Of a DNA stretch of 64,000 nt, positions 2,204-29,935 are shown piece after piece. A program made the position numbers and the translations under genes. The DNA comes from an uncultured virus (IMG/VR IMGVR_UViG_3300034012_002207) (Duplodnaviria; Heunggongvirae; Uroviricota; Caudoviricetes), in IMG/VR virus record IMGVR_UViG_3300034012_002207. One strand, given 5' to 3'. Numbering within the stretch: position 1 is the stretch's first letter; every line of letters starts with the position of its first letter. The notes beneath the pieces are model-generated. The model worked only from the letters and a program-made list of their open reading frames with translations, did not search any database and was not told where the DNA came from.

Positions 2204-2211
2204 GTATACAC

Positions 2212-7051: not shown

Positions 7052-7053
7052 AT

Positions 7054-11769: not shown

Positions 11770-11802
11770 GGTAGCTCCAAGCCTTTAATATTTAGTATAC
11801 CC

Positions 11803-11831
11803 ATTTTAACACAAAACCATTGTGGTGTCAA
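11803..11831 (-). promoter_or_regulatory. sigma70-type promoter for tape measure operon
   Basis: TTGACA-17-TAAAAT on minus strand. Confidence 0.7.
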
Positions 11832-11870
11832 CCCAAAAATTTTAGGATGTAAAAAAACCCGCAAAAGTTT

Positions 11871-12182: not shown

Positions 12183-12232
12183 ACCTACACTAGTATTTTG
12201 AATATAATTTTTTATATCACGTTCAGTTTGAG

Positions 12233-12640: not shown

Positions 12641-12699
12641 GTATTACCTTTGGTTTATAAAATACAGGGAGTATGTACTCCCTGTACGTGGACTACTAT

Positions 12700-13806
12700 T
12701 TAAGCATTAGTTGTATAATATCTTACAGTTAATTCGTTTGCACTAGCAATATCAAAGGCACTATTTGCACTGCCTTGAGCTGTAAATGTAATGGCTGTAC
12801 TAACAACCTGTTCCGTATTTACGCTAGGAATACTTAGCACAATAGCTGGCATGTCAAACTCTACACGATCTGCTCCTGTACCGCCTACTTTAATTATAGC
12901 ACGGAAAGCAGGGTCTACGTCAGTAGTACTACTAGTTAAAAGGGCACTCATTAGTCCTGCACTGTTTGTAGCACCTGTACGTAAGTAGCAGTTTAGGGTA
13001 CCAGTAATACCGCGAGTACCAGTAAAGTATGTAGCAGGTTGATTTACTACACCTAAGTTAGCAGGTGTTAAGTAAGTAATGTTATTGGTAATTGTTAAGC
13101 TACCACCTGTAAGTGCTAGTGTATAAGCTGTGCCTCCGCTAAGTTCACTGTCAAGTGTAACCACGCTTAGCTTATTAGCTATGTAAGGAGCAGTTGTAAC
13201 TTTAGTTTTAAAGTCGCCTGCTAAACTACCGCTCCAAGTATCTGCGTCTACAAATGTAGGAGTAGCAATTTGACGAAGAAACTTGCCTTGACCTGCCCAC
13301 TGAATACTTGCAATTGCATCTAAGCCAAAATCTACAGTAGCTGTGTTTACAACGCAATCATCAATTACAAAAGTTGTGGCGTCTAGAACGATAACTAGGC
13401 CAAATTTTTGTAGTTGGTGTACGTTTGAACTGGTAGCTACTACTGTACCAGCAGATGTTGCATCACTCCAAGCTGTACCGTCCGCACTAAACATAGCACC
13501 CCATAGTACGCTTTCTTCTGCAGTAATATTAGCACCAGCATCTTGTGGACGCATATAAGTAGTAAATGAAAAGTCAACTGGATCTAGTGCAGTATTAAAC
13601 TGACGCTGACCACGGCTAGGAGTAGCTCCGGCTTCGTTTAAGGCAACTGTTTCTGTGGTAGTGTTTTGTGAAAAGCTCATGCCATCCAAGACTTGAATTT
13701 CACGAGTATTAGCTGCTGTGAACCCAGTTGCGGCTACTACACCAGTTGTTGTACCAACATTCTTAGTCCAAAACACTCTAGCGTTACGAATTAAATTATA
13801 ACTCAT
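12700..13806 (-). CDS. major tail tube protein (T5 pb6-like)
   Basis: LIRNARVF, EIQVLDG.SFSQ, RG...FNTAL.P.DFSF.TY.RP; synteny. Confidence 0.88.
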   Translation of the reverse strand: MSYNLIRNARVFWTKNVGTTTGVVAATGFTAANTREIQVLDGMSFSQNTTTETVALNEAGATPSRGQRQFNTALDPVDFSFTTYMRPQDAGANITAEESVLWGAMFSADGTAWSDATSAGTVVATSSNVHQLQKFGLVIVLDATTFVIDDCVVNTATVDFGLDAIASIQWAGQGKFLRQIATPTFVDADTWSGSLAGDFKTKVTTAPYIANKLSVVTLDSELSGGTAYTLALTGGSLTITNNITYLTPANLGVVNQPATYFTGTRGITGTLNCYLRTGATNSAGLMSALLTSSTTDVDPAFRAIIKVGGTGADRVEFDMPAIVLSIPSVNTEQVVSTAITFTAQGSANSAFDIASANELTVRYYTTNA

Positions 13807-13883
13807 CTTTTTTCCTTGTTATTGGGTGCAGTACTAGCCGTAGCAAGACATTTATCTGCGTTTAGCTATACTAGCACGGGTTC

Positions 13884-14324
13884 TTACACGATTGGATATC
13901 TAACCTGTAAGTTAATCTCTCCAACTCCATAAGGTACTAATAGTCCTTCATCAGTTGTGATTGATTGTACTAGAATTTCTGTTGTTTCTAGATTTTGTTC
14001 GGTGTCATAAATTAGAACCCTGTTAGAATCTACGCATTGTTCTATATCTTCTAGCAATTGTTCAAGCTGCTCTTGTGTGTTATCTTCACTACGAACATAT
14101 GCTTTAATTGCTATATTTAAGAAACCCCAAGCAAAGTCTCCTGGCATGTACTCACGGGTTTCGCTGCCGGGGGTTGCATATATACTAGGAAAATCTTGTA
14201 TTTCGTCCCAGAACTTTAATTTGGCATATGCGTTGTTATACACATTGGTAGTGTATGGTGCAGTACCGTCTATTAGCTTTAGCTTTTCTACTAGGGCTTT
14301 GGTAATCTGTGTGCGCTTAGTCAT
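13884..14324 (-). CDS. tail terminator protein
   Basis: RTQI..ALVEKL, ITTDEGLLVPYGVGEI as in T5-like terminators. Confidence 0.8.
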   Translation of the reverse strand: MTKRTQITKALVEKLKLIDGTAPYTTNVYNNAYAKLKFWDEIQDFPSIYATPGSETREYMPGDFAWGFLNIAIKAYVRSEDNTQEQLEQLLEDIEQCVDSNRVLIYDTEQNLETTEILVQSITTDEGLLVPYGVGEINLQVRYPIV

Positions 14325-15814
14325 GCTAGTACGGCCCTCATTTTGGTTATCATTTGTTCTTGCATGATTTCACGGATTGACTTAGAGATTAACAGTTTAG
14401 GGTCTCTGGATCTAGGAAACTCCTGTCTGCCGCCTTGACTAAAAGTAGCGTATGGATATCGCATATAATTATAATATGCAGTTATCATGCCTTCACGGCC
14501 TTGAGTAATCCGCTCAACTCTAGCACTTTCTGCAAACCTACCAGTTCTGTAGTTTAAAATATCGGTTCTGCTACCAGTTCCCATATTTTGACGAATTCTA
14601 GCAGTTAATTGTGATGCTAATATATTTTGAAGATCCGTTAGGGATCGCTGAGATACTAAATCTTCTAATATTAAATTTTCTTTTATCTTTTTAGTATCAG
14701 GTTTTGCTGCTTTTAATTTATTTTTTAAATTGGTCAAAGTCTGTATTTTTTGCTTATTAGACTTTGGTTTTGAAATCTTATTTGACTTTTTAGCAACTAA
14801 TACTGGTTGTTGCTTATATACTTTTTTACTAAGAGTTTTGCCAGCAATAGTATCTGCTATATCTTTTGCTATTAAGTCTATAAAACTTGGAGATCCTGGA
14901 GTATTTATTAATGTAATACCCAGAGCAGGAGATTTATTAATTATTGTAGCAAACTCTTGATTTGATAAATTAAATATATTTCTTAATTCATCAATAATAG
15001 GAATACTTGCTCGTCCTGACTGAATATTACCTACTCTATGTTGAAGCTCAACTAGGTATGTATTTGAAGATTTTATATATCCTGCATAAAGTTCTTGATC
15101 TACAGCATTTGGTAAATTTGCTGTAGCTAAGTCATCTTGAACTAATTTATCAATGTAACTATCAAGTACTTCTAATAGAGCATCTCTTTGTGCCTTTGTT
15201 TCAAAATCTACTTTTGCTAATTGATTTCTGAATTGTCGTACTAGATTGGTGGCTACACTAATTACGTGACCTTTATTAAAATAATATCCTAAAGTACCTC
15301 GTTCTTTTGCTTTATCAGCAATTTCTCTTTCTAGCTTTCTTTTTTCTGCTGTGGTACTTGATTTATATTTAGGATTATTTTTTAAGGCTTCTATTTCATT
15401 TTTATAGTATACTTGTTCAGCCTCATAGTATGCGTCTTGTATTTCAGGTATAGCATCTAATATATTAGTAATTTTTGTACTTATAGTGTCAAAACCAATA
15501 TTTTTAAAAAATACTGCTGTTTCACCATTTACATTAATTTGAGTTCCACTAATAGTATCTTTGCTTGTTGCAGTTACTTTTAACAAGTCTGATAAGAATA
15601 TTTGAGCTTCACTGTTATCTATGTCTATATTGGCTATTGTTTTATATAGCTGTTTTACAGTGCTAGTCGTAATATAAAAACTAGTTTTTTGACTAACCTG
15701 CTCTCGGTCTCTAAGAGCCTTTGAGGTGGCTGTTACAATATTTTTATCAAGATTAGATAACCAATTTTTATATACTTGACTTTGTAGTGCTGCTGTAAAA
15801 TTTGCTATACCCAT
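14321..15814 (-). CDS. tail completion/neck protein
   Basis: C-terminal LNYRTGRFAES...YMRYPYATF..G...RDP.LLIS.SIREI; synteny. Confidence 0.7.
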   Translation of the reverse strand: MGIANFTAALQSQVYKNWLSNLDKNIVTATSKALRDREQVSQKTSFYITTSTVKQLYKTIANIDIDNSEAQIFLSDLLKVTATSKDTISGTQINVNGETAVFFKNIGFDTISTKITNILDAIPEIQDAYYEAEQVYYKNEIEALKNNPKYKSSTTAEKRKLEREIADKAKERGTLGYYFNKGHVISVATNLVRQFRNQLAKVDFETKAQRDALLEVLDSYIDKLVQDDLATANLPNAVDQELYAGYIKSSNTYLVELQHRVGNIQSGRASIPIIDELRNIFNLSNQEFATIINKSPALGITLINTPGSPSFIDLIAKDIADTIAGKTLSKKVYKQQPVLVAKKSNKISKPKSNKQKIQTLTNLKNKLKAAKPDTKKIKENLILEDLVSQRSLTDLQNILASQLTARIRQNMGTGSRTDILNYRTGRFAESARVERITQGREGMITAYYNYMRYPYATFSQGGRQEFPRSRDPKLLISKSIREIMQEQMITKMRAVLA

Positions 15815-16383
15815 TACGCATAATCCGCCATGTAGAGATCAAATACTCGTCTAATGTGTGCTGGCAGGCTACTACTTTGTACATATTCAATTTGTGTATT
15901 ATTAGTACCAGCAGCTTTAGTTGACTTTACTGCTGCATCATTGTCTTTGTAGTATGTGAGTAAATCCATACAAGCAGCTTTTAAATCTTCTGGCACAATC
16001 TCGTAACCACCAAAGTAGGCAACCTTATAGCCGCGAATTAACTTCTCAAATATGCCGCTAGGATGTAGGCTTATTATATCGTCGCCATCTACAACCCAAT
16101 CTGTAAATTTTACTAGTGGTGTCCAAGTTTGACCGTAGTCTTTGCTCTGCTGAACACTAGTTACTGTGACCACTGGAGTTTCGCGTAGTAGAATACGATC
16201 AAATCCGCCGGTACTGTACTCGATAAGCGGATCGTTATAGTAATCTATAAATGTGCGTTTGCAGTAAGTTTTTGCAAACTGTGAAACCTTAGGAATTAAG
16301 CTATCAATTTCACCGTCAGAATTTGCGCTATTAATCCCTATGTACGACTTATATTCTTGTCTGGTAAAAAGGCTTAATCCCAT
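15814..16383 (-). CDS. head completion / head-tail adaptor
   Basis: EYK.Y.GI, Y.GGY..VPEDLK.A, LPAHIRRV; follows capsid. Confidence 0.8.
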   Translation of the reverse strand: MGLSLFTRQEYKSYIGINSANSDGEIDSLIPKVSQFAKTYCKRTFIDYYNDPLIEYSTGGFDRILLRETPVVTVTSVQQSKDYGQTWTPLVKFTDWVVDGDDIISLHPSGIFEKLIRGYKVAYFGGYEIVPEDLKAACMDLLTYYKDNDAAVKSTKAAGTNNTQIEYVQSSSLPAHIRRVFDLYMADYA

Positions 16384-16471: not shown

Positions 16472-18406
16472 TTAGGCTACGTAACGTAGAGCGCTTACGC
16501 CCTGACCAAGGTTAGTAGTAACTTGGGTCATGCCAGTGCGTAGGCTGGCAACCATTACGCGACGTTGTGTTTCAACTAGGTCATCGGTGTCAACACGTAG
16601 ACCACGCTGATTACCAACTAGGAAGTTACCTGGTGCAAAGCAGATTGCTCCAACAGCAGCAGCGGCTTTATCAGCAAACTCAGCACTTACTAGAACTGGA
16701 GTATTAGCAACGCTACCGATTTGACCTGTTAGTAAAGTAGCTTGTGTGCCAACTTTATCAACAGTTAGGAAGTTATCGTCGTCTAAGAGATCGTAGTAAC
16801 CGTCTGTGCTTACAATATAAACTAGCTCAGCAGGATCTAAGCCCCAAGCACCTAGGTCACGACGCATTGCACGTAGAAGTGCAACTGTTAGCTTAGCGTT
16901 ATCGCTAATGTCTAGATTAACTGCGCTTGTTTCGTCGTATGTGGCAAGACCTTTAACAGGATCTGCACCAGCACCGGCACCACGTAGCATTGCGCGATCA
17001 ACAGCACGAGCAACACGGCGAACCATTGCGTCACGGATAACAGGCATAATTGCTATTAGAGCATCTTCTTCTTCTTCGAAGGCTACATACTCGTTGGTAG
17101 CAACTTTGTATGCGTTAAGAGTGATCTCTTTAAGAGCGTGAACAGCAGTATTACCAGCTGAAGCTGAGGCACCAAACTGGCTATTCTGAACCCAACTTGC
17201 AACACCTGCTTCGGGGTTAACAGGAATAGTCATTACGTTAGTTTGCATTGCAATACTACGTAGGGTAGGAGCAACAACTAGGCGACGGCGAACTTCGTTT
17301 TCCATTGCTAGGCTAACTTCTAGTTCCCAAGTTGCGCTTGGCTGGTGAGGGCTTTGACCTGTACCACCGTACTTTTGAACTAGTTCACGACCTAGACGTG
17401 TCTGGTCGATTGCTTTGCCGCTCATCTTGGCTAAGAGAACTGCTTTCTCTTTGTCGGCATAGCTCATTTCGCCTTGTTTGCCATCAACGAATTGCATCTT
17501 GCTTTTCTGAATAGCTTCTAGCTCTTGTGCTTTTTCTTTTAGGGCAGCTTCTAGGCCAGTGATAACACTCTTGGTGCTTTCTGCTTGTTCTTGGAAGCGC
17601 TTCTCTACTTCGGCTAGTAGCTTTTCTGCACCAGTTTCAGTAGGAGTTACAGCAGCAACAGCTGCTTTGATACGTGCTTGTAGCTCAGCTTCTGCTTGTT
17701 CACGAGCAGCTTTCTCAGCTTCTACACGAGCTTGTTCTTCTTTGATAGCCTTAGCAGCTTGCTGTGCAGCGTCTTGAGCTGTTTGGGCTAGTAATTGCTT
17801 TAATTCTTCTGGAGTCATGTCCAATTCCTCTTTGGTTGTGCTCTTTGCTTGCCTAGTGGTGTCTAGCCCTTTAGCTGACTCGCTTTGGGGTGCAAATTGC
17901 GCGATAAATTCACGATACTCCGTAACGGAGTTAAACGATTTTGAAAGATTAAAAAGTGTGTTTTGATTTGCTGGTACCGAAACTACCGAAATTTCATGTA
18001 ATTCTAAGTCTTTGACTAGGAAAACTTCTGCGGCTGTATTATATTCCGCATCTTTAATTCTAAATCCAACTGAAAATGCTGTTAAAACTTCGTCTTTGAT
18101 AAGCTGGTATACTTTTTCAGCAGCTTTTGAGATCCTAGCTTTAATCCATAATCCTTTTGCATCTACTTTGTGCTCAGTCATACGACCAACTGGTTGAGTA
18201 TGGTCATGAAATGCTAGGATAACAGGATTTTTTATGTAGTTCTCTAAGCCTCTTTCCCAAACTGAGGTGGGGATTACATCGCCGTGTCTGTCAACATCCA
18301 CAGTTGATGCATATCCACTAATCTCAATTACGTCTGGTTCTGCTGGTAGCGGCTCAGCTTTAGTAAAGACACTGTTAAAGTACAGGATCTTATTTTTGTC
18401 TACCAT
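16472..18406 (-). CDS. HK97-type prohead protease fused in frame to major capsid protein
   Basis: ISGYAST..DRHGD, LAFHDH..PVG, FSVGF, LHEISVVSVPAN, then coiled-coil delta domain and HK97-fold capsid. Confidence 0.9.
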   Translation of the reverse strand: MVDKNKILYFNSVFTKAEPLPAEPDVIEISGYASTVDVDRHGDVIPTSVWERGLENYIKNPVILAFHDHTQPVGRMTEHKVDAKGLWIKARISKAAEKVYQLIKDEVLTAFSVGFRIKDAEYNTAAEVFLVKDLELHEISVVSVPANQNTLFNLSKSFNSVTEYREFIAQFAPQSESAKGLDTTRQAKSTTKEELDMTPEELKQLLAQTAQDAAQQAAKAIKEEQARVEAEKAAREQAEAELQARIKAAVAAVTPTETGAEKLLAEVEKRFQEQAESTKSVITGLEAALKEKAQELEAIQKSKMQFVDGKQGEMSYADKEKAVLLAKMSGKAIDQTRLGRELVQKYGGTGQSPHQPSATWELEVSLAMENEVRRRLVVAPTLRSIAMQTNVMTIPVNPEAGVASWVQNSQFGASASAGNTAVHALKEITLNAYKVATNEYVAFEEEEDALIAIMPVIRDAMVRRVARAVDRAMLRGAGAGADPVKGLATYDETSAVNLDISDNAKLTVALLRAMRRDLGAWGLDPAELVYIVSTDGYYDLLDDDNFLTVDKVGTQATLLTGQIGSVANTPVLVSAEFADKAAAAVGAICFAPGNFLVGNQRGLRVDTDDLVETQRRVMVASLRTGMTQVTTNLGQGVSALRYVA

Positions 18407-18414
18407 AATTTCCT

Positions 18415-19596
18415 CTATTCATTTCCACCCTGGGGCCTACCCCCTTGGGATGGATTTGCTGCACTACCAGCAATGTTAGCTGGAATTCTTATCTCGTCGG
18501 CTCCGTCTATGCGATCATAGCGGAGTTCCTGACGAGCTTCGTTAGGTGTTATAATACCGCCGTTGACCAGTGTACTATGGTAGCTGGCAATATCTTTAAT
18601 GTCTGGTTGTAGGGCCGATACCGTTTGTGTGATTGCTTCCACGTCATATCCAAAGTACCGTTCTACTGCACTTACCCAGGACTTGGCAATAGGCATCACA
18701 GTTTCTAGGTAAAATAAGCGCAAGTTAGGAGCAATGTTGGCATTGTTGCCACCCATGAGCAAGATAGGCGGAACGCCTAAGGCTTGCAGGATCTTTTCTT
18801 GATGAGTCTTGATCGATTGATCAAAGTCCATTTCTTTAAAACTGGTGTCTGTGATCTTTTGTGGCTTTAAACCACTGTCCAAGATAACCGGACGACGACC
18901 ACCCACTTTAGGGTTGTACTTTTGCTGCCAGTACTGTATAGTACGCTCTTTGGCAATAGTGCTCAAAGTATTCTCGGTTGTAAGCACCATGCCAAACACA
19001 GCACCGTTTTCAAAGAACGCATCCTGAAACTGTTCCATGTTGTACAAGGTCCGAATCGAACGCTGCGCACTTTCCAACCTGCTAGATCCCCGGTAAATAC
19101 TATCACTACTCAGGTCTTTGAGTGAAAATACCTCCCCTTCCCGAAAGTCTACCAATCCGTTGTAACGGTAGCCTTTGATAAATGTCTTTTCATCGGTGAG
19201 TATTTCTACACGCGAAGCGGGCAGGTGGTAGAGAAACGTACCGTCGTAGTGTACAAACACATTGCCTTCTAGTAAATAGTCGGTAAATATGTTTTTACGA
19301 AAATCTTGTGCCGATTGGTAGGGGTTAGGTCTGTAGTTTAGCATGGTAGCTAGGGACTTTTGACGAGTACCTACAACCACACCCTCGTACAACTTATCCT
19401 TGACGTCATAGTCTAAACCCGCACAAGCACTTACAATTAAGTTAACGCCGCGGTTAACCATTTCAACACGCTTAAACGCTTGCTGATAGGTAAGGGGCGC
19501 AGTGGTACCAATCATGGTACCCTCTTCTTGTGCTATTCTAACCTGCGCAGGATTGAGTTTCCAGCGCAAGTCACTAAAAAATTGTTTTATTCCCAC
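18415..19596 (-). CDS. portal protein
   Basis: HK97 portal motifs (PNPYQS, FFENGA, LGVPPILL, GIITPNEAR); likely GTG start at 19596 with GGAGA RBS. Confidence 0.92.
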   Translation of the reverse strand: MGIKQFFSDLRWKLNPAQVRIAQEEGTMIGTTAPLTYQQAFKRVEMVNRGVNLIVSACAGLDYDVKDKLYEGVVVGTRQKSLATMLNYRPNPYQSAQDFRKNIFTDYLLEGNVFVHYDGTFLYHLPASRVEILTDEKTFIKGYRYNGLVDFREGEVFSLKDLSSDSIYRGSSRLESAQRSIRTLYNMEQFQDAFFENGAVFGMVLTTENTLSTIAKERTIQYWQQKYNPKVGGRRPVILDSGLKPQKITDTSFKEMDFDQSIKTHQEKILQALGVPPILLMGGNNANIAPNLRLFYLETVMPIAKSWVSAVERYFGYDVEAITQTVSALQPDIKDIASYHSTLVNGGIITPNEARQELRYDRIDGADEIRIPANIAGSAANPSQGGRPQGGNE

Positions 19597-20409: not shown

Positions 20410-21723
20410 TTATCTAGTAAACGAGTATAAGCAGTAGCGGAGCGCATCCATAAGGTGAGAGTACCGATCATGCTTAGGCTTCTCACGTGTAAGCCCCTCG
20501 CGATCATCCCACTTGTACTGGTTGAGTGCCTCTACGGTCTTGGTACAGCCCGGATCTACCCATAGCTTACCCTGTGCGACTAGGGTTTGCACGTACGCGA
20601 TGCCGGGAAGTACATCTTTACGAGCACGCACAGTCGGAATATCATACTGGTAGGCAAGGTCTTGAGCAAACTGTGCTGCCGCACTATCTATAAAGATTAG
20701 TTCAATCTGGAACTCGTCTGCCATGTTTTTAATCTGTTGGGCATGATACTGGGTAGTCTGCTCGGCCTCCTCGTACTCACGTATAACCCAGAACCTATCC
20801 TCGCCTGCATCACGTGGATCCGGCAGGTAGGCTACTACTAGGAAGGCTGTGGGGTCTCGGTATCCCGGGTCGCAGCCCGCAATAAACTGAGTACTCTGAT
20901 CCAGCTGCAGTTTGGGGTCCCAAGGCACGATGTTATCATCCCGTAACTCATAAATCTGACCCTCAAATGTAGTGAATGACGCAAGGTATTCCTGCTCAAA
21001 CTCCTGCTTGCTCATAGACCTGCGGGCTTCTTCAATATCTTTAGGGCTCATCCTGGGATTTTCTTCATAATCTGCCCAGAGTGAACACCACTCCGGAAAT
21101 TCTGCCGAGAACCCACGATCCCAGAATCGGGAGAACCAGTTTTGCTTGCCACGAGGTGTGGAGATAAATATAGCTTTAGCATCTACCCGGTCTAGGGTCG
21201 GACGCAGCTGGATATTAAATGCCTCCTCACCGCCGTCGCCTAAGGCAGCCTCGTCAAAGAGTATAAGCTGGTACGATCTACCAACTGTGCTATCTACTGT
21301 GGACAGCGAACCCATCCTGACTGTAGACCCGTTGCTCAGCTCAATTACCCGGTCCTTTAGGTTATCCCGCTCCACCTCCAACTCAAAGTGTTTGATAAAC
21401 CTGCGTTGCAGTTCAAAACTAATGCTGGACAGATTATAGTTGGGACTGATCACTAGGACATTGCAGTTTGGCACTAGGCTTACTAGTTGCGCAATGATAT
21501 TTGCAATATAGGTTTTGCCTAGACGGCGTGCTAGTGCGGCTACAACAAAACGGTATTGTGGATTGTTGACCGCATTGATTAGTGCCAGCTGCGCGCGGTT
21601 TAGCTGATCCCAAGCTCCGATGAGCTTAAGATAGTTTTCGATTGGTAGTTTAATAAAACGGGTATGTGGGTCGAATTCTTGAATGCCGTCCCACTCTACA
21701 TCGGGTCTCGACACCTTAAGCAA
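20410..21723 (-). CDS. terL: terminase large subunit
   Basis: ARRLGKT Walker A, LILFDEAA Walker B, ISTPRG, nuclease GCDPG, HLMDALRY. Confidence 0.95.
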   Translation of the reverse strand: MLKVSRPDVEWDGIQEFDPHTRFIKLPIENYLKLIGAWDQLNRAQLALINAVNNPQYRFVVAALARRLGKTYIANIIAQLVSLVPNCNVLVISPNYNLSSISFELQRRFIKHFELEVERDNLKDRVIELSNGSTVRMGSLSTVDSTVGRSYQLILFDEAALGDGGEEAFNIQLRPTLDRVDAKAIFISTPRGKQNWFSRFWDRGFSAEFPEWCSLWADYEENPRMSPKDIEEARRSMSKQEFEQEYLASFTTFEGQIYELRDDNIVPWDPKLQLDQSTQFIAGCDPGYRDPTAFLVVAYLPDPRDAGEDRFWVIREYEEAEQTTQYHAQQIKNMADEFQIELIFIDSAAAQFAQDLAYQYDIPTVRARKDVLPGIAYVQTLVAQGKLWVDPGCTKTVEALNQYKWDDREGLTREKPKHDRYSHLMDALRYCLYSFTR

Positions 21724-22183
21724 GTTTGTCTCCCAGCAATTTCTGGATTAGCTGGCCATATCGTGTACCGTCACCGCCCTCGTTGATCTGCACATTAACC
21801 TGATTTTTAGGCCCACCTTGCCGTAATTTCTCCAGCTGAATCTCACGGTCTAGCAATTCCATGCTCATTTTGTGTGAGAGTGCAAGTAGTTCCGATATGT
21901 CTTTGGTGCTGCCCGTTTGCGACTCCTCCAGCTCCTGAAACTTTTGACTAATAAGTGCGTCCATGGCACGGCGCATACGAAACCGGTTGTTGAAGCCTAA
22001 GTCGAAGAATACCTGGTTAATGTAGGATTTCACATCTGGACGCTTTAGGATCTGGGCAACGTCGTGGGGTTCTAGCTGGAGGACAGTGGCTACCTCCTGG
22101 GTGTTTTGGTGTTCTAGGTAGAGATTAGCCACCTCCAATAATTCGGGGCTTATGTTGATGGTGTCGGTGGGTAGTTGGTTCAT
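21716..22183 (-). CDS. terS: terminase small subunit (T5-like)
   Basis: ISPE.LEVAN.YL HTH, GFNNRF; immediately upstream of terL. Confidence 0.8.
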   Translation of the reverse strand: MNQLPTDTINISPELLEVANLYLEHQNTQEVATVLQLEPHDVAQILKRPDVKSYINQVFFDLGFNNRFRMRRAMDALISQKFQELEESQTGSTKDISELLALSHKMSMELLDREIQLEKLRQGGPKNQVNVQINEGGDGTRYGQLIQKLLGDKLA

Positions 22184-22368
22184 GGTGATCCTGTAGTTTT
22201 TTAAAGTGTAACACGTTTAGCGGTTTAGGGTCAATGGGTAAATTTTCCTTGGTGTTACACGCGTGGGTGGGCGCTCAGATTTTTTGGTTTGTCAAGTCAA
22301 AAAACCGCCCCTGTTACGTTATAACATCACAAGGCCTGGCGCTGTTACAAATTGTTACAATTCAATGC

Positions 22369-22396
22369 TTGCACAAAATTTTCAACCCTGTATAAT
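22369..22396 (+). promoter_or_regulatory. pre-early promoter
   Basis: TTGCAC...TG TATAAT. Confidence 0.65.
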
Positions 22397-22430
22397 TAAA
22401 CACATCGAAGCACACAACCCTGGAAGCACA

Positions 22431-22583
22431 ATGCGGAACACCTATACAATCAGTTACTACTTGCAAGGCAAGCAAGGTTCTGTTACACTACAGGCTCAAA
22501 GCGAGCAAGATGCTTGCGGGCTTGTCAAGGCAATGCACAAGGGTTGCCGTATCTTCCACGTTATGAATTACAATCTTTATTGA
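22431..22583 (+). CDS. hypothetical protein
   Basis: first ATG after promoter. Confidence 0.5.
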   Translation: MRNTYTISYYLQGKQGSVTLQAQSEQDACGLVKAMHKGCRIFHVMNYNLY

Positions 22584-22590
22584 GGCTAAT

Positions 22591-22776
22591 ATGAAAAGCG
22601 CGTTAGGTTTTGGGCTTGTGTTTTTTGGGATTGTGTTGCTTGCCGGCGTAGCCGGCGGGCTTGACCAGATACCCGCGACTGGTTCTGTGGTATACTGGCT
22701 TACCAGCGTAATGCTGGCACTTGCTGGCTTTGCTGCTGGCTTGCTTGGAATTTCATTTATTGACAAAGGGGAATAA
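22591..22776 (+). CDS. small membrane protein
   Basis: GAGG RBS; two hydrophobic helices. Confidence 0.65.
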   Translation: MKSALGFGLVFFGIVLLAGVAGGLDQIPATGSVVYWLTSVMLALAGFAAGLLGISFIDKGE

Positions 22777-22779
22777 ATC

Positions 22780-23100
22780 ATGGCTGAAAAGACTGCGAAC
22801 TACACTTCGGAACAAACCCTTAAACTTGTGGCCGATTACAAGGCTGGGGTACAGGTTGAGGATATTGCCAAGGCAATGGGCAAATCGGTTCGGTCGATTG
22901 TTGCTAAACTGTCCCGCGAGGGTGTATACCAGAAAAAGGAATACACAACCAAAACGGGCGAGGCTCCCGTCAAAAAGGATGAGCACGCTGATATGATCGG
23001 CAAGGCACTGAACCTTTCAGAAGGGGATACCGATTCACTTGCCAAAGCAAACAAGCGCGCGCTTGCTGCGATTGCGGAGTTTATCCGCAGCAAGGCGTAG
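22780..23100 (+). CDS. T5 A2-like DNA-binding protein (copy 1)
   Basis: NYT.EQT..LV..Y..G..VE.IA..MGKSVRSIVAKLSREGVYQK; L.KANK.AL. Confidence 0.75.
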   Translation: MAEKTANYTSEQTLKLVADYKAGVQVEDIAKAMGKSVRSIVAKLSREGVYQKKEYTTKTGEAPVKKDEHADMIGKALNLSEGDTDSLAKANKRALAAIAEFIRSKA

Positions 23101-23330
23101 CACACTACGGCTCGGGGCGCAAGCCCCGAGGCCTGGGAGCGTGTTGTATTTTTACAACACGCTGGCGCCAAAATTATATCATATAATTTTGGCCCGTGTC
23201 AAGCATTTAATTGTAACAATTTGTAACAGCGTGGTTTTTTGGTCATTAGGGTTTTCCTTATATGCCCTGGGTTGCACAATCCCCAAAAACCTGTATAATT
23301 CTCTACATGGACAAAACACAAGGCAACAAA

Positions 23331-23561
23331 ATGATGAACGATCCTCAAATGATAGTTGACCATGCCATGCAATGTGGCGCGATTTGGGCTGGCATCGATA
23401 ACCTTGCACTTCACAAGGATCGCAAGGCTGTTGCGGTATCGTTCTCAAGCACGCACGATGCTCAGGAATTTGTGTACTATATACACGATTGGCTCGATGA
23501 GCATAACTTTCCTGATTTGCCTGTATCTTACGACGAAGAATTTGTTTTGGTCTGGCTCTGA
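23331..23561 (+). CDS. hypothetical protein
   Basis: ATG downstream of promoter at about 23272-23299. Confidence 0.5.
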   Translation: MMNDPQMIVDHAMQCGAIWAGIDNLALHKDRKAVAVSFSSTHDAQEFVYYIHDWLDEHNFPDLPVSYDEEFVLVWL

Positions 23562-23585
23562 AACTTAACCTTGAAAGGGTTTATC

Positions 23586-23915
23586 ATGAAAAAATGGGAT
23601 CAAGTTTTACGGCGTAATCTTCTGTCCGACCTTGAGGGAGAAGGTGGCTCGCTGGTTTATGATGTTGAGGACGGAATTACCGTCGCGGTTCGTCCCAGTG
23701 TGCCTGAATCATGGAGCCGGAATTCCGTGAACTGGGTTAAAATCGCAGTTGCCTATTGTGCAGACTTCGATGCCTATGACCCGATCAAGGGTGAGATTCT
23801 GGCAATGGAACGGGCTTTTCAGGGTGAAACGGTTTCGTTTCCCCGTATGCCCGGAGAGACTACGCTGGAAGTTGCTCTGAACTTTTTGCGATTTGTCAAG
23901 GGTGACGTAAACTAG
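23586..23915 (+). CDS. hypothetical protein
   Basis: AAGGG RBS, ATG 23586. Confidence 0.6.
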   Translation: MKKWDQVLRRNLLSDLEGEGGSLVYDVEDGITVAVRPSVPESWSRNSVNWVKIAVAYCADFDAYDPIKGEILAMERAFQGETVSFPRMPGETTLEVALNFLRFVKGDVN

Positions 23916-24089
23916 GGTAAACCCAGGTGTTGCGGAAACGCAACACCTGGGCGCCAATTTTATCATATAAAATTGGCGGGTGTCAAGGGTTTTTGCAAAA
24001 AAATTTTTCTATGGGCGTGAGCGTGTCGATAGAAAAATACAATGGCACCTGGCTTGCACTAGGCGCGATTTTCCTGTACTATCTTACTC

Positions 24090-24431
24090 ATGAACTCAAA
24101 CCCGCTCTTAAAACCTTGGCAAGATGCTTGCCGGATTTGGCCGGAACTGGAATTGCACAACCCGCCAACCTTCAAAATCTCGGAACGGCTAACCCGTACC
24201 GCTGGCTTGTGCATTGTGGAGACTGGCGAGATTACCCTCAGCGGCCCATACTTGCGCGAATACCGGCGTGAAATGATGGGGCAAATTCTCACCCATGAGA
24301 CTGCACATTATATCGACTACTGCCTGAACGGATGGCGAAAATATAAGCGGCATCACGGCAAACCATGGCAGGAAATCATGTATACTCTAGGGTATGAACC
24401 GAAACCCTTTCACACAATGGAATTAAAATAA
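24090..24431 (+). CDS. SprT-like zinc metalloprotease
   Basis: RLTRTAG, LTHETAH, HGKPW. Confidence 0.85.
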   Translation: MNSNPLLKPWQDACRIWPELELHNPPTFKISERLTRTAGLCIVETGEITLSGPYLREYRREMMGQILTHETAHYIDYCLNGWRKYKRHHGKPWQEIMYTLGYEPKPFHTMELK

Positions 24432-24904
24432 TGGCAATCAAGCGCGTTAGAATTTACGACATGGACGGAACCATTGTATGCTCGCTGCATCGTTACCGGA
24501 CCGTCATCGATGAGCGTGGCGAGCGTATCGACCTAGACTACTGGCGCGAGAATGAATACCGCGCGCTTGACGATTCACTCTTACCGCTGGTCGAAGAATA
24601 CTGGCAAGACCTTGACGATCCTGAAACGTATACCATAATTGCGACTGCGCGCGTACTAGGCGAACCGGATCGAGAATTTATCCGCGACACTCTAGGCGAA
24701 CCCGATTATATCGTTTCGCGTAAACAGGGCGATACGCAATCAGGTCGAACCCTCAAAATCGGTGGACTAGCAAAGTTTTTCAACCTTGTCAACTTCCAGA
24801 CTGACGATGTTGTTTTTTATGAGGATAATGTGGACTACCTTAAAGCAGTCTGCGACCGTTTCGGTATCCGTGGAGTTTACATTCCAAGCAAGCAGGGACA
24901 CTAA
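24431..24904 (+). CDS. HAD-family phosphatase
   Basis: IYDMDGT, IATAR, K, FYEDN motifs. Confidence 0.8.
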   Translation: MAIKRVRIYDMDGTIVCSLHRYRTVIDERGERIDLDYWRENEYRALDDSLLPLVEEYWQDLDDPETYTIIATARVLGEPDREFIRDTLGEPDYIVSRKQGDTQSGRTLKIGGLAKFFNLVNFQTDDVVFYEDNVDYLKAVCDRFGIRGVYIPSKQGH

Positions 24905-25315
24905 TGAAAACTGCCTTTTGCTTCCTACTGGTCGGTCATCTGGTAACAACCTCTCGATACAGGGCGCGCGAATACCTTGAGGAGGAACCCGTAATGTGGC
25001 AATGGGTTGAAGGACGATAGGGGCATACGCCCCTATTATTTTGCCCAGGCCATGTGATGTTATAACATAACATTGTTTCACATGAAACAATGTTATGTTA
25101 TAACATCACACCATGCTGGCGCCAATTTTACTATTAAAATTGGGCCGGTGTCAAGGACCAAATTGTAAATAATTGTAACAAAACCTGGCCCGTGTCGTAT
25201 TTTGTACACAAGGGTTTGCCCCACTAGAATTTTTTGCATGGGGCTGGATTCTGTGCTAGAATCTGGGTGTGGCAATTGCCGCGCGCGATTTCCGGCGCTT
25301 TCCGGTAAAGGGTAG

Positions 25316-26017
25316 ATGATGGCTCGCAAGCAGTTTTTTTGTATCGTTGACACTGAGACAACGATTAATGATACCGTGGCCGATTTTGGCGCGGTAATTG
25401 TTGATCGTGAGGGTAAGATTTTCACACAATGTGCTGTTCTGGTTCGCGGTGAATATGGGGATAAGACTCTATTCCACGACAAAAACAAATCAGATATTTG
25501 GGGTTTTGCGGGTTTGCGTAAACGTGAAGCACAATATGTCGCCATGCTAGATTCTGGCGCGCGTATGCTTGCATCAGTTGCGGCAATTAATCGCTGGCTT
25601 GCGCTTGCGGTAGGCAAATATAATCCTATTCTCACGGCATATAATCTAAACTTTGATGAGGGTAAATGTCGCAATACTGCGATTGATCTTGACCTATTCA
25701 CGGATCGGTTTTGCCTGTGGCAAGCGGCAATCGGTAATATTTGCGGAACTCGCAAATATCGTCAATTCTGTTTAGAGAATCACTTATTTAATCCGCCGAC
25801 TGATAAGGGTAATATGTCTTTTAAGACTACCGCTGAGGCAGTATGCGGATTTATTCAGGGTGAATTTAAGATTGAACCCCATACCGCTATCGAGGATGCG
25901 CGCGATTTTGAATTGCCCATCCTGACCAGTATTATCAAGCGCAAACAATGGCGCGATAATCTTAAAGCGCATACATGGTACGATTTTCAGGTCAAAAATC
26001 ACTTTAAGGCAATTTAA
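25316..26017 (+). CDS. DEDDh 3'-5' exonuclease
   Basis: IVDTETT, AYNLNFD, HTAIEDA. Confidence 0.85.
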   Translation: MMARKQFFCIVDTETTINDTVADFGAVIVDREGKIFTQCAVLVRGEYGDKTLFHDKNKSDIWGFAGLRKREAQYVAMLDSGARMLASVAAINRWLALAVGKYNPILTAYNLNFDEGKCRNTAIDLDLFTDRFCLWQAAIGNICGTRKYRQFCLENHLFNPPTDKGNMSFKTTAEAVCGFIQGEFKIEPHTAIEDARDFELPILTSIIKRKQWRDNLKAHTWYDFQVKNHFKAI

Positions 26018-26019
26018 TT

Positions 26020-26274
26020 ATGTCGGATGCAATCGGTATTATCGGATCGGTTGCATTTGCAACCTGTGCAATTCCACAGGTTGTCGAATGCTACCGTAAA
26101 CGATCCGCTGAGGGTTTGTCGTGGATGTTTTTAATCCTTTGGGCAATTGGCGAGATATTCACCATTATTTATATTTGGCCTAAACAAGACTGGATTTTGC
26201 TGGGCAATTATCTATTTAATTCGCTTTGCCTTGCGGTAATGATTTTTTTCAAAATTGAGGATACCAGAAAATGA
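26020..26274 (+). CDS. PQ-loop / SemiSWEET-like membrane protein
   Basis: AIPQV...RKRSAEGLS, three TM helices. Confidence 0.85.
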   Translation: MSDAIGIIGSVAFATCAIPQVVECYRKRSAEGLSWMFLILWAIGEIFTIIYIWPKQDWILLGNYLFNSLCLAVMIFFKIEDTRK

Positions 26275-26615
26275 AGTTTCACAAATCAGACATTGAACTA
26301 TTCCAGCGAATTGCGGAAACCGAAATTCAAATCCGCAAACCCGTAGTTTTACAGGTTTGCAAGACTATAAATCTCGGCGGTGTTTATTGTGTAGGATTAT
26401 GGGAAGATGAATTCGATTATCACCTAATCCAAGTTTCACGCGCTGAAATCTGGAATCCCATGGAATTATTTGCAACCATTGTGCATGAATATATTCACGC
26501 TTGGCAATCTGAAAATAATCTTCCAGTAAATCATTCTCCATCAGGTTATTTTGATCGGTGGCGAAAATATTTCCGGCGACATTATCAGGTTAATATTGCA
26601 GGATTCAATAAATAA
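26271..26615 (+). CDS. HEXXH zinc metallopeptidase-like protein
   Basis: TIVHEYIHAWQ...H. Confidence 0.7.
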   Translation: MKFHKSDIELFQRIAETEIQIRKPVVLQVCKTINLGGVYCVGLWEDEFDYHLIQVSRAEIWNPMELFATIVHEYIHAWQSENNLPVNHSPSGYFDRWRKYFRRHYQVNIAGFNK

Positions 26616-26890
26616 ATAAAACCCCGAAAGGGGTTTTACTTTGCCAGGCCTATGTGATGTTATAACATCACACCCGTGTGATGTTATAACATCACACCTT
26701 GCTGGCGCCAAATTTTATCATATAAAATTTGCCCGTGTCAAGGGTTTTCTACAAAATATTTTTCTATCGGGGTCGCCTAGTCGATTAAAAAATACAATCG
26801 CTTGCCCAGGGCGCAGGGCTAGATTTTCGTGTAGAATCTTTTCTGTGGCGGGTGCATGGGGCGCTTGCCAAAACTGTGAAGGGTAGCAAA

Positions 26891-27217
26891 ATGGCAGAAA
26901 AAGCCGTGAACTACACTCCCGAGCAAACCGCGCAGGTTGTCGCGGATTATCTCGCGGGTGTTACCGTGGAAAGCATTGCCGAAAATCTCGGCAAATCGGT
27001 TCGTTCGATTGTGGCAAAATTGTCGCGCGAGGGTGTTTACCAGAAAAAGGTTTATACCACGAAAACCGGCGAACCCGTTCAGAAAAAGGATATGACTGCG
27101 GATGCTATCGGTCGAATTCTGAACCTGAGCGAAGCTGATACCGACTCGCTTACCAAAGCGAACAAGCGCGCGCTGAAGGCGATTTTTGATGCGCTTGCCA
27201 ATTCCAAGCCTATCTAA
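26891..27217 (+). CDS. T5 A2-like DNA-binding protein (copy 2)
   Basis: close paralog of 22780-23100. Confidence 0.75.
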   Translation: MAEKAVNYTPEQTAQVVADYLAGVTVESIAENLGKSVRSIVAKLSREGVYQKKVYTTKTGEPVQKKDMTADAIGRILNLSEADTDSLTKANKRALKAIFDALANSKPI

Positions 27218-27233
27218 CTAGGCAAGGATTGTG

Positions 27234-27263
27234 CCAGCCCCGACTCCGGTCGGGGCTTTTTTT
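27234..27263 (+). terminator. intrinsic terminator
   Basis: agccccgac-tccg-gtcggggct followed by T-run. Confidence 0.85.
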
Positions 27264-27278
27264 CGGCCCGGCCCAGCC

Positions 27279-27690
27279 TGGCACAGTTCTTGCTAAGGCA
27301 AAAACTGTGCCAGGCGCTGGCGCCGATTTTATCATATAAAATCGGCCCGTGTCAAGCGCAGAATTGTAACAATTTGTAACCGTGGCTTTTTTACCACAAA
27401 GCAAAATTCGTGCCAGGCCTAGATGAGAATGATTCTCATTCGCACCAAGCAAAATTCGTGCCACTAGCAAGATTCGTGCCAGCCTAGCGAAGTGAGCACT
27501 TACTAACCGGACCAAGTTAGTGAGCACTTACTAACCGGACCAAGTTAGTGAGCACTTACTAACCTCCAGGGCAGGTTGCGCCAGTGCAAAACCTTGGCAA
27601 GTGCAAAATCTTGCGCGTGCGCCAGTGCAAAACCTTGGCAAGTGCAAAAACTTGGTCTTCCTGCGCCAGTGCTAAAGTGGCAAATCGAAA
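27279..27690. repeat. repeat/palindrome cluster, injection-stop-signal-like
   Basis: 5 TGGCAC-N5-TTGC units, 3 x 28-bp tandem repeat, 2-3 x ~31-bp repeat with 41-bp period. Confidence 0.85.
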
Positions 27691-27887
27691 AATCTAGTCT
27701 TGCCCGCGACCGCTAAGCCATGTATAATATTTATATTGAGTCAGCGATTAAAGGAACAACATGAACAAATTTGTGCCACCGGATACCGTAGGCGATTTAC
27801 CTGACTGGTTGAAGCCTAAAAAATCTTGACTTGATTCCCAAGCCTAATCCCTGTATAATATTTATATTGATTGATTGGAGAACCCAA

Positions 27888-28196
27888 ATGACTGACAAAG
27901 TAATGAACTATACCCCTGAACAAGTTCAGGAACTGGTCCAGAAGTATCAGCAAGGTGTAAGTGTTGAGCAACTGGCTGAGCAGGTTGGTAAAAGTGTGCG
28001 TAGTGTGGTTGCTAAACTTTCGCGCGAGGGTGTGTACGTAGCGAAGACCCGGACTACACAGGCGGCCCGGGTTACCAAAGCTGAGCTGGTCGAGCGCATT
28101 GCTAAGGTGTGTGATCGGAATAGTGAACAGTTTGAATCGCTGGAAAAAGCAAATCAGGATGTTTTGACCCGCCTGGTCGAAGTGCTCAAAGCCTGA
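27888..28196 (+). CDS. T5 A2-like DNA-binding protein (copy 3)
   Basis: NYTPEQ...GKSVRSVVAKLSREGVY; GGAG RBS. Confidence 0.75.
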   Translation: MTDKVMNYTPEQVQELVQKYQQGVSVEQLAEQVGKSVRSVVAKLSREGVYVAKTRTTQAARVTKAELVERIAKVCDRNSEQFESLEKANQDVLTRLVEVLKA

Positions 28197-28258
28197 TCAA
28201 CCGGGGGCTGCAAAAATTTACTCTTGCAGCCCCCACTCAAACAGTGTATAATATTATT

Positions 28259-28636
28259 ATAGTTTGGGAAGGGCGATAACGCGCACAAACAGAGTCCACT
28301 TAGCCAACTACAAGTGTCGATAACCTAAGTACGAGACTCAAGTTTGATTCCCAAACTATCCCTTCAGAAAGGCAGCAGTTAGTTACTGCTAGCAGATGGT
28401 AATATTGGTCTGTAGTTTTATGATGTCTGGCTCTGATCGGTCCCTAATGTCTCAGTACCTGGAAGCAGTAAATTCTGGGGAACGCACTCACGGAAATCAA
28501 CCAGACCCTAAACCGCGGCAATCTCAACCATCGTTGCTGCTTTTCCCCCTATTCCTCTGATGAGCTCACCAAGAGCGAAACCCAAACCCGAAAACTGGTG
28601 CCCCATGCCCAGCAGACTACGGTTTAGGGTCAGGAA
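28259..28636 (+). ncRNA. putative structured ncRNA ending in hammerhead ribozyme
   Basis: promoter at about 28224-28252, long closing stems, no credible ORF, terminator at 28639-28670. Confidence 0.65.
28552..28636 (+). ncRNA. type I hammerhead ribozyme
   Basis: ttcct-CTGATGA-gctc/gagc-GAAA-ccc.aaacc/ggttt.ggg-TC-aggaa; GUC cleavage after 28631. Confidence 0.88.
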
Positions 28637-28638
28637 CC

Positions 28639-28670
28639 GAGCCCACCAGTGCAAACTGGTGGGCTTTTTT
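28639..28670 (+). terminator. intrinsic terminator
   Basis: agcccaccagt-gcaa-actggtgggct followed by T-run. Confidence 0.9.
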
Positions 28671-28836
28671 ATTTGCGGTAGGGCGCCAATATTATACAGT
28701 GCTAAAGCTATATGTGTCAAGAGCAGATTTGTTGGGGTTCTGACCCTAAGCCGCGGCAAGTCGGTACAAGTTGTGCTCACAAAACAAAAACCCCCAAGGC
28801 TTCCACAGCTTTGGGGGTTTTTTCACTTTATACGGT

Positions 28837-29148
28837 TTAGGGTCGGTTATTCCTACTTAATTCCCGTTCTATGACCTCAAGCACACCTTTATTGACCTTT
28901 TCCAGACTTTCGAGCAGTTCAAGGTTCATGTTGAGCAGTAGGGCGATTCGTTCGATGTATTCTGACTTCTTAACCGGGACCTCACCGCGTTTGTTTAGGT
29001 ACTGTTTTTTCTGGTACACCTCGAGGGAGCTGAGCTTGGCAATTATGCTACGAGTTGGCACCTGGAGCTCTTGGGCAAGCTCCTCTACTGGGACACCTTC
29101 TCGGTATCTTTGCACTAGACGGTCAGTGATTTCTTTAGTATATTTCAT
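28837..29148 (-). CDS. T5 A2-like DNA-binding protein (copy 4, convergent)
   Basis: MKYT.E....LV..Y..G..VEELA..L...RSIIAKLS...VYQKK; LESLEKVNK. Confidence 0.7.
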   Translation of the reverse strand: MKYTKEITDRLVQRYREGVPVEELAQELQVPTRSIIAKLSSLEVYQKKQYLNKRGEVPVKKSEYIERIALLLNMNLELLESLEKVNKGVLEVIERELSRNNRP

Positions 29149-29152
29149 GTTG

Positions 29153-29935
29153 TTAGTCGTCCCATGGCATATCTGCGACTTTAACGTGTTTTGGACCCTC
29201 AGTCGCCACAACCGAAAAAATCTCGTCGGGTAGGAGCGGCGGTGGCATACGATCCCACTGCCAGGGGTCTAGGATTAAGTATTGTGTTCGTAGCTGTGGA
29301 TGGCAAACCCAGATTTGTGTCAACATTGTAATCGCCAGACGAGGAATCTCACGCCATGGAGTGGGTAGTCCAGTAAGCTGCCAAGTTGTAAGCGCACTTT
29401 TATACTGACCTTGTTTTTGTCCAGTTTTGTACAGCAACCCCTGCTGGCGAATTTCGATGAGCTCTTGTGACCCTAAATCGCGGAAGTGTGGGTTATGGCT
29501 AGCCCACAGCAAACATTCGTAAAGTTCTTTACTAATCACACGATCCAAGCCTTCCAGCGGCCAGCTCTGGTATGGAACTCCCCGATCTCGACGTTGTGCT
29601 AGTAGGATAGTAGGAGCTAGACTACTCCAGTTGACAGAGCTGGGATGGCTTTGACGTTTGATCAGGTGGCTGCGATTTACTCGATTAACTAGCCTCCACA
29701 AGCCCAGCTCCCAATCGCTGCAAATGTTGATACGGAGTGTTTTAGGAATGTCTACCCTACCTTGAGGGTCTAGGATAAGATTCCAGCGATTGTAGTGTGC
29801 TAGAATCTGAGGCCACAACCACTCCTCTTTGGTCTGGAGTTGTTGTTCGGCCACCCAAACCTCCAGCAGTTTAGGGTCGACCTGGTTGGCAATTTCATGG
29901 AGTGGAATTGCTTCCAGTTTATTTAGTTTTTGCAT
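29153..29935 (-). CDS. hypothetical protein (Trp-rich)
   Basis: 260-aa ORF, operonic with the A2-like gene. Confidence 0.75.
   Translation of the reverse strand: MQKLNKLEAIPLHEIANQVDPKLLEVWVAEQQLQTKEEWLWPQILAHYNRWNLILDPQGRVDIPKTLRINICSDWELGLWRLVNRVNRSHLIKRQSHPSSVNWSSLAPTILLAQRRDRGVPYQSWPLEGLDRVISKELYECLLWASHNPHFRDLGSQELIEIRQQGLLYKTGQKQGQYKSALTTWQLTGLPTPWREIPRLAITMLTQIWVCHPQLRTQYLILDPWQWDRMPPPLLPDEIFSVVATEGPKHVKVADMPWDD

Follow-up and report, generated by a model that had tools for sequence, protein, structure and literature searches.

To our knowledge, the halt that phage T5 makes after injecting 8% of its DNA has remained unsolved for decades. Repeat Region 3 of T5 has been proposed as the injection stop signal, and a tether formed by host DnaA in this stop region has already been proposed in print (10.1101/866236). 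In T4-type phages, promoter-early stem-loops (PeSLs) combine a sigma-70 promoter with a stem-loop and drive modular shuffling (PMC2839356). Here, we report on a 64-kb stretch of DNA (“the window”) from the uncultured virus IMG/VR IMGVR_UViG_3300034012_002207, in which a block of small genes that appears to be of the T5 pre-early type adjoins the terminase gene TerS. The non-coding spacers of this block are six copies of one control cassette, each containing a sigma-70 promoter that points backward, against the genes of the block, and are not a loose panel of sites. A first-pass annotation of the spacers, made from the letters alone, had read them as a decoy array for unrelated host regulators.

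The spacers are dense in palindromes and repeats, as that annotation had stated. The complete 97,811-bp record contains 29 perfect inverted repeats (arms of at least 9 and loops of at most 6 bases), of which 16 lie in 22184-28830 (window coordinates), a 6.6-kb region that makes up 6.8% of the genome. Twenty shuffled sequences gave 1-7 such repeats genome-wide and 0-2 within this region. A repeat search of 22000-28500 returned 34 direct families and 27 inverted pairs. All positions that had been listed contain the sequence described, and the stretch is real, but it does not end at 27690: a sixth cassette extends it to ~28721. The sites stand in fixed register with promoters, which contradicts the earlier view that their placement is unlike that of operators.

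Read in the direction of the window, a cassette consists of the terminator of a plus-strand unit, a slot filled by a perfect palindrome of 20-58 bp, the hexamer GGCGCC, the backward near-consensus sigma-70 promoter, short direct or inverted repeats, and a forward sigma-70 promoter. The backward promoter faces straight into the slot palindrome. On its opposite side come first short repeats, either direct (AATTGTAAC) or inverted (TTTTTCTAT..ATAGAAAAATACAAT), and then the forward promoter. The elements are listed here with the strand, where they have one, and the means by which they were found.

22205-22234, minus strand: promoter-like site upstream of TerS (TTGACC-18-TACACT with TG); promoter scan
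22312-22331: type B palindrome copy with 2 mismatches, in the spacer beside TerS; sequence match
22344-22362, plus strand: GTTACA direct repeats just upstream of the -35 of forward promoter 0; inverted copy of 23200-23231, 97% complementary
22369-22396, plus strand: forward promoter 0 (TTGCAC-16-TATAAT, TG before); sequence
23138-23163: slot palindrome of cassette 1, type A (TGTTG..CAACA core); inverted repeat
23164-23203, minus strand: backward promoter 1 (TTGACA-18-TGnTATAAT-TTT-GGCGCC), with its core in a 27-bp perfect palindrome; promoter scan and inverted repeat
23209-23227: AATTGTAAC direct repeats between the divergent promoters; repeat search
23272-23299, plus strand: forward promoter 1; sequence
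23922-23951: slot palindrome of cassette 2, type A; inverted repeat
23950-23987, minus strand: backward promoter 2; promoter scan
24004-24043: inverted repeat TTTTTCTAT..ATAGAAAAATACAAT between the divergent promoters, earlier called an OxyR/LysR-like site; repeat search
24043-24057, plus strand: sigma-54-like box whose TTGC doubles as the -35 of forward promoter 2 (24054-24082); pattern match
25053-25110: 58-bp perfect palindrome in the slot of cassette 3, type B arms round a parS-like centre (25074-25089); inverted repeat
25118-25155, minus strand: backward promoter 3; promoter scan
26653-26696: two type B palindromes in the slot of cassette 4, after a two-way terminator (26614-26641); inverted repeat
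26704-26742, minus strand: backward promoter 4; promoter scan
27276-27315: slot palindrome of cassette 5, an inverted pair of sigma-54-like boxes, with the same design in Vibrio phage PG07; repeat search
27319-27356, minus strand: backward promoter 5; promoter scan
28682-28721, minus strand: backward promoter 6, without a palindromic core and with the same TTGACA-18-TATAAT-N3-GGCGCC; promoter scan

A sigma-70 promoter scan of 21500-29500 found 34 sites against 12.4 expected, and the six best matches (11-12 of 12 positions) are all on the minus strand. These backward promoters read TTGACA, an 18-bp spacer, TGn-TAWAAT (one copy deviates), 1-3 bases and GGCGCC, a hexamer whose six copies in the whole genome all sit at backward promoters. 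We searched for the same module in 80 TerS-anchored IMG/VR loci (750 kb, both strands), some of which are copies of one phage. It is present in 47 of them, and every one of its 157 copies lies on the TerS strand, antisense to the small genes. The other 33 loci lack the module, possibly owing to a short upstream flank or to greater distance. Among 102 distinct module sequences, TTGACA is found in 87, and spacer and -10 fall within a perfect palindromic core in 88. The arms of this core covary, with 8.0 of 8 positions complementary within a module and 4.5 of 8 between modules.

The slot, in turn, is interchangeable. In the window, cassettes 1 and 2 have the TGTTG..CAACA type in it, cassettes 3 and 4 have TGTGATGTTATAACATCACA, and cassette 5 has the inverted sigma-54-like pair. 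The relatives contribute 128 distinct downstream contexts, nearly every one beginning with a palindrome, of at least 10 types, and usually one or two types dominate in a genome. In loci L025 and L032, which are ~80-90% identical to the window, AAGTTAGTAAGCACTTACTAACTT stands where spacers 3 and 4 of the window have TGTGATGTTATAACATCACA. Such swapping, with one or two dominant types, is explained by phage-encoded recognition or by structural hairpins no less readily than by host regulators. Contigs of relatives from wastewater runs join cassette to cassette (for example 22331 to 25090, 25073 to 26703, and 27444 to 23165), with short sides of 20-38 bases that come from other strains. These joints hint at PeSL-like shuffling between cassettes.

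By its genes, the virus is an uncultured lake-water phage distantly related to T5. Its TerL protein is 46.5-49.9% identical to those of Demerecviridae, with Vibrio phages closest, and the window proteins form a T5-like gene set by PHROG matches. The block of small genes begins at 22184, directly adjoining TerS (21716-22183). In Vibrio phage PG07 the genes run A2-A1-dmp-TerS, with the pre-early genes as immediate neighbours of TerS, and thus the position of the block is right for a pre-early block. The block genes are inverted relative to TerS when compared with phage phiR2-01 and PG07. The block also holds a Dmp homolog and A2-like proteins, in line with the earlier designation as a pre-early region; position and content together suggest that it is of the T5 pre-early type.

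24431-24904, plus strand: Dmp homolog (T5 pre-early deoxynucleoside-5'-monophosphatase); 38% identity, E 5e-15 to phiR2-01 Dmp; tblastn E 5e-12
22780-23100, plus strand: A2-like/GcrA-like DNA-binding paralog 1; homology, codon-phase substitutions, fold model
26891-27217, plus strand: A2-like paralog 2; paralog comparison, codon-phase substitutions
27888-28196, plus strand: A2-like paralog 3; GcrA Pfam 29.4 bits, cut-off 26.9
28837-29148, minus strand: A2-like paralog 4; paralog comparison, Pfam

The four A2-like paralogs are 43-70% identical among themselves and match phage “DNA binding / D5-like” families and GcrA, one of them above the GcrA Pfam cut-off and three below it. A fold model of paralog 1 consists of two three-helix halves (pLDDT 82.5). 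Compared with four relatives, all 12 plus-strand open reading frames (ORFs) of the block have an excess of substitutions at third codon positions; one of these ORFs was begun one base off, so its excess appears at the second position. Minus-strand ORFs below the backward promoters are ruled out because the substitutions follow the plus-strand codon phase.

The block further encodes a SprT-like zinc-protease-type protein (24090-24431; Pfam E 1e-16) and a small PQ-loop membrane protein (26020-26274; E 3e-13). A forward promoter at 28224-28252 is followed by ~380 bp without a convincing ORF and then by a strong terminator (28639-28666). Small contigs from a freshwater RNA run cover 28003-28451, and no Rfam family scores above threshold at 28224-28666. 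This interval could be a non-coding RNA.

Cassette 5 is embedded in a gene-free repeat array, composed as follows.

27219-27690: gene-free repeat array with six sigma-54-like boxes, cassette 5, a Fur-like palindrome, type C repeats and AGTGCAAAA repeats
27222, 27279, 27298, 27401, 27449 and 27467: sigma-54-like boxes of the array; pattern match
27424-27438: Fur-like palindrome; pattern match
27491-27564: three 28-bp repeats carrying the type C palindrome; repeat search
27577-27676: five AGTGCAAAA repeats; repeat search

Among the elements of the array is one GAGAATGATTCTC palindrome. The element order of the array is kept in seven relatives (L025, L032, L070, L074, L080, L083, and L092), which include distant lake relatives. 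In L025 (reverse complement ~6330-6380), and similarly in L032, an extra forward promoter (TTGACA..TATACT), which the window has lost by deletion, fires into the array. Three motif families of 27219-27690 recur in PG07, in the untranslated DNA next to A2: sigma-54-like boxes forming an inverted pair, GAGAAT..ATTCTC-type palindromes in arrays, and direct repeats of the GAGTGCAAAA type; PG07 has DnaA boxes in addition. On account of these three families, we read the array as the probable counterpart of T5 Repeat Region 3.

Two kinds of host-like sites exceed chance. The sigma-54 (RpoN) -24/-12 consensus is TGGCAC-N5-TTGC. It occurs exactly seven times (0.15 expected), a count reached in none of 100 shuffles, and all seven genome copies are within the region. 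The first-pass annotation was right that these boxes are there, but had counted six. A G frequently follows TGGCAC, the middle five bases vary, and distant lake relatives retain TGGCACGATTCTTGC. Six of these seven boxes have no ORF in front of them. In each of the three Vibrio Pogseptimavirus (T5-like) phages examined there are three exact sites, within 2.3-3.2 kb; those of PG07 are all in spacers or gaps of the pre-early region, and those of the other two phages lie 5-8 kb from TerL. None of three enterobacterial T5-like phages has such a site, and a reversed-pattern control gave none in all six phages. No match to the sigma-54 activator domain (PF00158) was found in the phage genome, which is an estimated 93% complete.

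Palindromes of the NtrC type (TGCACC-N5-GGTGCA, 0-1 mismatch) are present in repeat arrays of two relatives, with two copies in L092 (~1935-1968), near a sigma-54-like box, and three in L039 (631-717). There are none in the window, and such enhancers, being confined to these two loci, are not general. The idea that the GcrA-like paralogs read GANTC was rejected: this motif is not enriched in the region (22 seen, 25 expected), and only one of the seven sigma-54-like boxes contains it.

The second kind is parS, whose chromosomal consensus is TGTTNCACGTGAAACA. As the first-pass annotation had proposed, there is a parS-like 16-mer in cassette 3 (25074-25089); it matches at 15 of 16 positions, and nowhere else in the genome is there a site with 3 or fewer mismatches. 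The 80 loci contain 21 sites within 1 mismatch, and 11 of these are exact (in L086 and L090-L093). The placement is regular, with 18 of the 21 sites 25-60 bp downstream of a module GGCGCC, and the exact 16-mer is kept across lineages whose TerS is only 63-100% identical. ParB domains (ParB_N, HTH_ParB) were found neither in the phage genome nor in five relative fragments that are 6-40% complete, and parS is absent from all five cultured relatives examined. The conserved parS 16-mer is identical to a universal host site, and a 10-position match to the sigma-54 core persists in phages whose hosts belong to different classes; chance hardly accounts for either, even given the large number of motifs open to comparison.

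The remaining host sites of the first-pass annotation fared worse. Its Fur 7-1-7 site (27424-27438) has 2 mismatches, and 8 of 100 shuffles give equally many matches. This site agrees with the 19-mer at 15 of 19 positions, tied for the best in a genome with 68 matches of at least 13 of 19 (shuffle mean 54). The palindrome family to which it belongs has multiple copies in relatives; it occupies the L092 slot and is found as arrays in PG07 and phiR2-01. The Zur-type boxes are real as five palindrome copies, but their core ATGTTA|TAACAT has no central spacer, and the Zur consensus has a half-site spacing unlike that of this type B palindrome. As a host operator in its own right, type B was rejected: its 18-mer core occurs 9 times in 596 Gb of bacterial genomes, once per genome and in unrelated taxa, which is chance level. 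The proposed SlmA site exists in three identical copies, each with 2 mismatches to the 12-bp palindrome GTGAGTACTCAC that break its symmetry; four equally good matches lie elsewhere in the window, and among relatives the core varies while the outer AAGTTAG..CTAACTT is conserved. The GTTACA repeats assigned to OmpR and the ATAG-N7-CAAT motifs assigned to OxyR/LysR are promoter-proximal elements in fixed register, since they lie beside a backward promoter and are followed by a forward promoter. LexA boxes are at chance level in the window (two), with the sole one in the region inside coding sequence and none in the spacers.

We therefore favor, with slightly better than even confidence, the following reading: the block would be of the T5 pre-early type, the six backward-promoter cassettes would be its control units, its right end would be the stop-region counterpart, and a few host-like sites would act in cis. 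Promoter activity, RNAs, and binding proteins are here predicted from the anatomy, orientation, conservation, swapping, and motif statistics of the cassettes. Host sigma-70 RNA polymerase would occupy both the backward and the forward promoters. The backward promoter, together with a protein or hairpin on the slot palindrome, would seal each unit against read-through and give rise to a short antisense RNA capped by a hairpin. The operators would be the slot palindromes and the upstream repeats, and the majority of them are probably read by the four A2-like paralogs of the phage. The sigma-54 boxes and parS probably recruit host sigma-54 polymerase and ParB as cis-acting control or entry parts and not as a bulk sponge, which is not needed to explain the layout.

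Several points weigh against this reading. The covarying arms could stem from template-switch mutation instead of selection. A clear terminator on the own strand was found for only one of the six backward promoters (cassette 4), and a short RNA is therefore not general. Homology between the paralogs and A2 is weakly supported: BLASTP gave E 7e-4 over 66 residues, and hhalign against phiR2-01 A2 gave E 2.4e-4 with a probability of 44% across 100 columns. The fold model has no match in the PDB at E <= 0.001, and with a best E of 0.15 no fold can be assigned. No A1 homolog was detected by tblastn with phiR2-01 A1 in the 97.8-kb, 93%-complete genome (E <= 1), and none of the five DnaA boxes (TTWTNCACA) of the window lies in the region, so the equivalence with the T5 stop region rests on position and the three shared motifs. 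The sole RNA run consists of five small low-depth contigs (19088-19257, 22819-23020, and three within 27834-28451) and is uninformative on backward transcripts. Finally, the exact parS and sigma-54 matches fit host recruitment better than a purely phage-internal circuit.

Such recruitment is the core of an alternative that we regard as possible, if improbable. The first-entering DNA of this T5-like clade may provide landing pads for ParB (at exact parS), for sigma-54 polymerase parked as a closed complex, and perhaps for Fur, the slot taking whichever abundant protein suits the host, and the bound proteins would be brakes, anchors, or insulators for the entering genome. If this were true, the landing pads would be a host-protein-based form of the unexplained injection stop of T5.

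We consider it unlikely that the spacers are a host regulator panel, as first proposed, which soaks up proteins, anchors the partly entered genome, or forms the injection stop. It gains from the sigma-54 boxes, with their excess, their confinement to the region, and their retention in distant lake relatives and Vibrio phages, from the eleven exact parS copies, and from a 93%-complete genome in which neither ParB nor an enhancer-binding protein was found. The decoy idea is partly supported: of its host-site identities, sigma-54 and parS are beyond chance and conserved; Zur, SlmA, OmpR, OxyR/LysR, and the single Fur match are unsupported, and most of the repeat mass is one cassette. In related phages, sigma-54 boxes and parS are retained, but the slot palindrome swaps between close relatives, with one or two types dominating per genome. 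The fixed register with promoters, the lack of DnaA boxes in the region and of LexA boxes in the spacers, and the absence of parS from the five cultured relatives also speak against a panel. The first-pass annotation knew of no description of the T5 repeats as a decoy panel, but the DnaA tether is a published host-protein precedent (10.1101/866236) and lends the panel some support. Also against a panel, the resistance of a Salmonella rpoN mutant to a T5-like phage is reported to be indirect, as sensitivity is restored by rpoS deletion or glutamine (PMC8744999). The T5-like phage group of that study lacks sigma-54 boxes (three of three enterobacterial phages examined). Our search of the literature on sigma-54 and T5-like phages found no published description of the sites reported here, nor did we find a paper on host ParB sites in lytic phages.

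More doubtful still is a purely structural role, in which the palindromes would be hairpins (terminators or RNA caps) spread by recombination like the PeSLs of T4-type phages (PMC2839356), and their likeness to host sites would be coincidental. Arms that covary while the sequence varies, the at least 10 palindrome types in one slot, and the cassette-to-cassette contigs are what such hairpins would lead one to expect, although the sides of these joints measure only 20-38 bases and come from other strains. Hairpins alone, however, do not predict an exact parS 16-mer kept across lineages, or a sigma-54 core kept in lake and Vibrio phages around five variable bases. Type C repeats and sigma-54 boxes, moreover, also occur as tandem direct repeats, which are not hairpins.

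Very improbable is a role of the backward promoters as nick or packaging landmarks, with GGCGCC recognized by a nicking or terminase system like that of T5: the hexamer is rare (six copies in 97.8 kb) and constant in its module position, and the block abuts TerS, but all six copies cluster within 5.5 kb whereas T5 major nicks are spread along the genome, and conservation of the -35, of the 18-bp spacer, and of the TGn -10 is that of a promoter. The T5 major-nick consensus R/GCGCRGG contains GCGC (PMC3517423), but the flanks of GGCGCC do not fit it, and the GCGC core is all that they have in common.

The window corresponds to bases 33681-97680 of the virus record, read on the reverse strand; the record is classed as linear and without end repeats. 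Both contig ends lie outside the window, inside a highly repetitive fibre-like gene with ~30-bp periodic repeats, and the assembly break is therefore a repeat artefact and not a genome end. Lake-water metagenomes contain this phage DNA, and megablast against phage records returned no near-identical DNA. Tail genes, a protease-capsid fusion, portal, TerL, and TerS are all on the minus strand up to 22183; a split NAD ligase, a D5-like regulator, helicase, primase, and polymerase are encoded farther right in the window. The fusion is a single ORF (16472-18406) that matches both the head maturation protease and the major head protein. G+C content is ~0.32-0.37 in the tail genes (1-16000) and ~0.42-0.49 in the head, pre-early, and tRNA regions (16000-50000). 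Between 36843 and 50895 there are 18 tRNA genes and a permuted tmRNA of betaproteobacterial type (tag ANDETFALAA); the tmRNA type and the tRNA cluster hint at a betaproteobacterial host.

In the papers searched, neither the backward orientation, nor the palindromic promoter core with GGCGCC, nor the swappable slot, the parS sites, or the sigma-54 arrays were found, and for the cassette as a whole we know of no published description. The sigma-54 boxes share the exact -24/-12 consensus with sigma-54 promoters, in seven copies. They differ in that six of seven have no gene to drive, in forming inverted pairs and tandem arrays, and in that the phage encodes no enhancer-binding protein. The parS-like sites of the window and its relatives (15/16 and 16/16) are perfect palindromes, as in ParB-parS systems, but belong to a virulent-type phage in which no ParB gene was found, hold a fixed position 25-60 bp downstream of a backward promoter, and are absent from the five cultured relatives examined.

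With the untranslated regions of the T5 terminal repeat, the window shares a pre-early-type block by the terminase end, a Dmp homolog, A2-like proteins, and, at the far end of the block, a gene-free stretch of direct and inverted repeats and palindromes; sequences resembling host protein sites are likewise described for the T5 stop region (10.1101/866236). The differences are the lack of an A1 homolog and of DnaA boxes in the block, the expansion of the A2-like genes to four, the inversion of the block genes relative to TerS, the backward-promoter cassettes between gene units, and the parS-like sites. A published host-factor model of the T5 stop rests on DnaA boxes (10.1101/866236). The clade described here, without DnaA boxes in the region and without a detected A1, keeps an array with the sigma-54 boxes common to cultured Vibrio T5-like phages and adds exact parS, which provides concrete candidates for testing at the bench, for instance in the Vibrio phages PG07 and VspSw_1.

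The layout of the cassettes resembles that of PeSLs, in which a strong sigma-70-like promoter and a stem-loop are repeated between small accessory genes of a variable region (PMC2839356), and the cassette-to-cassette joints in relatives hint at comparable shuffling. Unlike the promoter of a PeSL, the conserved promoter of the window is antisense to the flanking genes and does not drive adjacent downstream genes. Its core is itself palindromic and ends in GGCGCC, and the place of the stem-loop is taken by an interchangeable, sequence-conserved palindrome. With 157 copies in 47 loci, the backward-promoter cassette is a widespread design that may show how phages insulate small early gene units.

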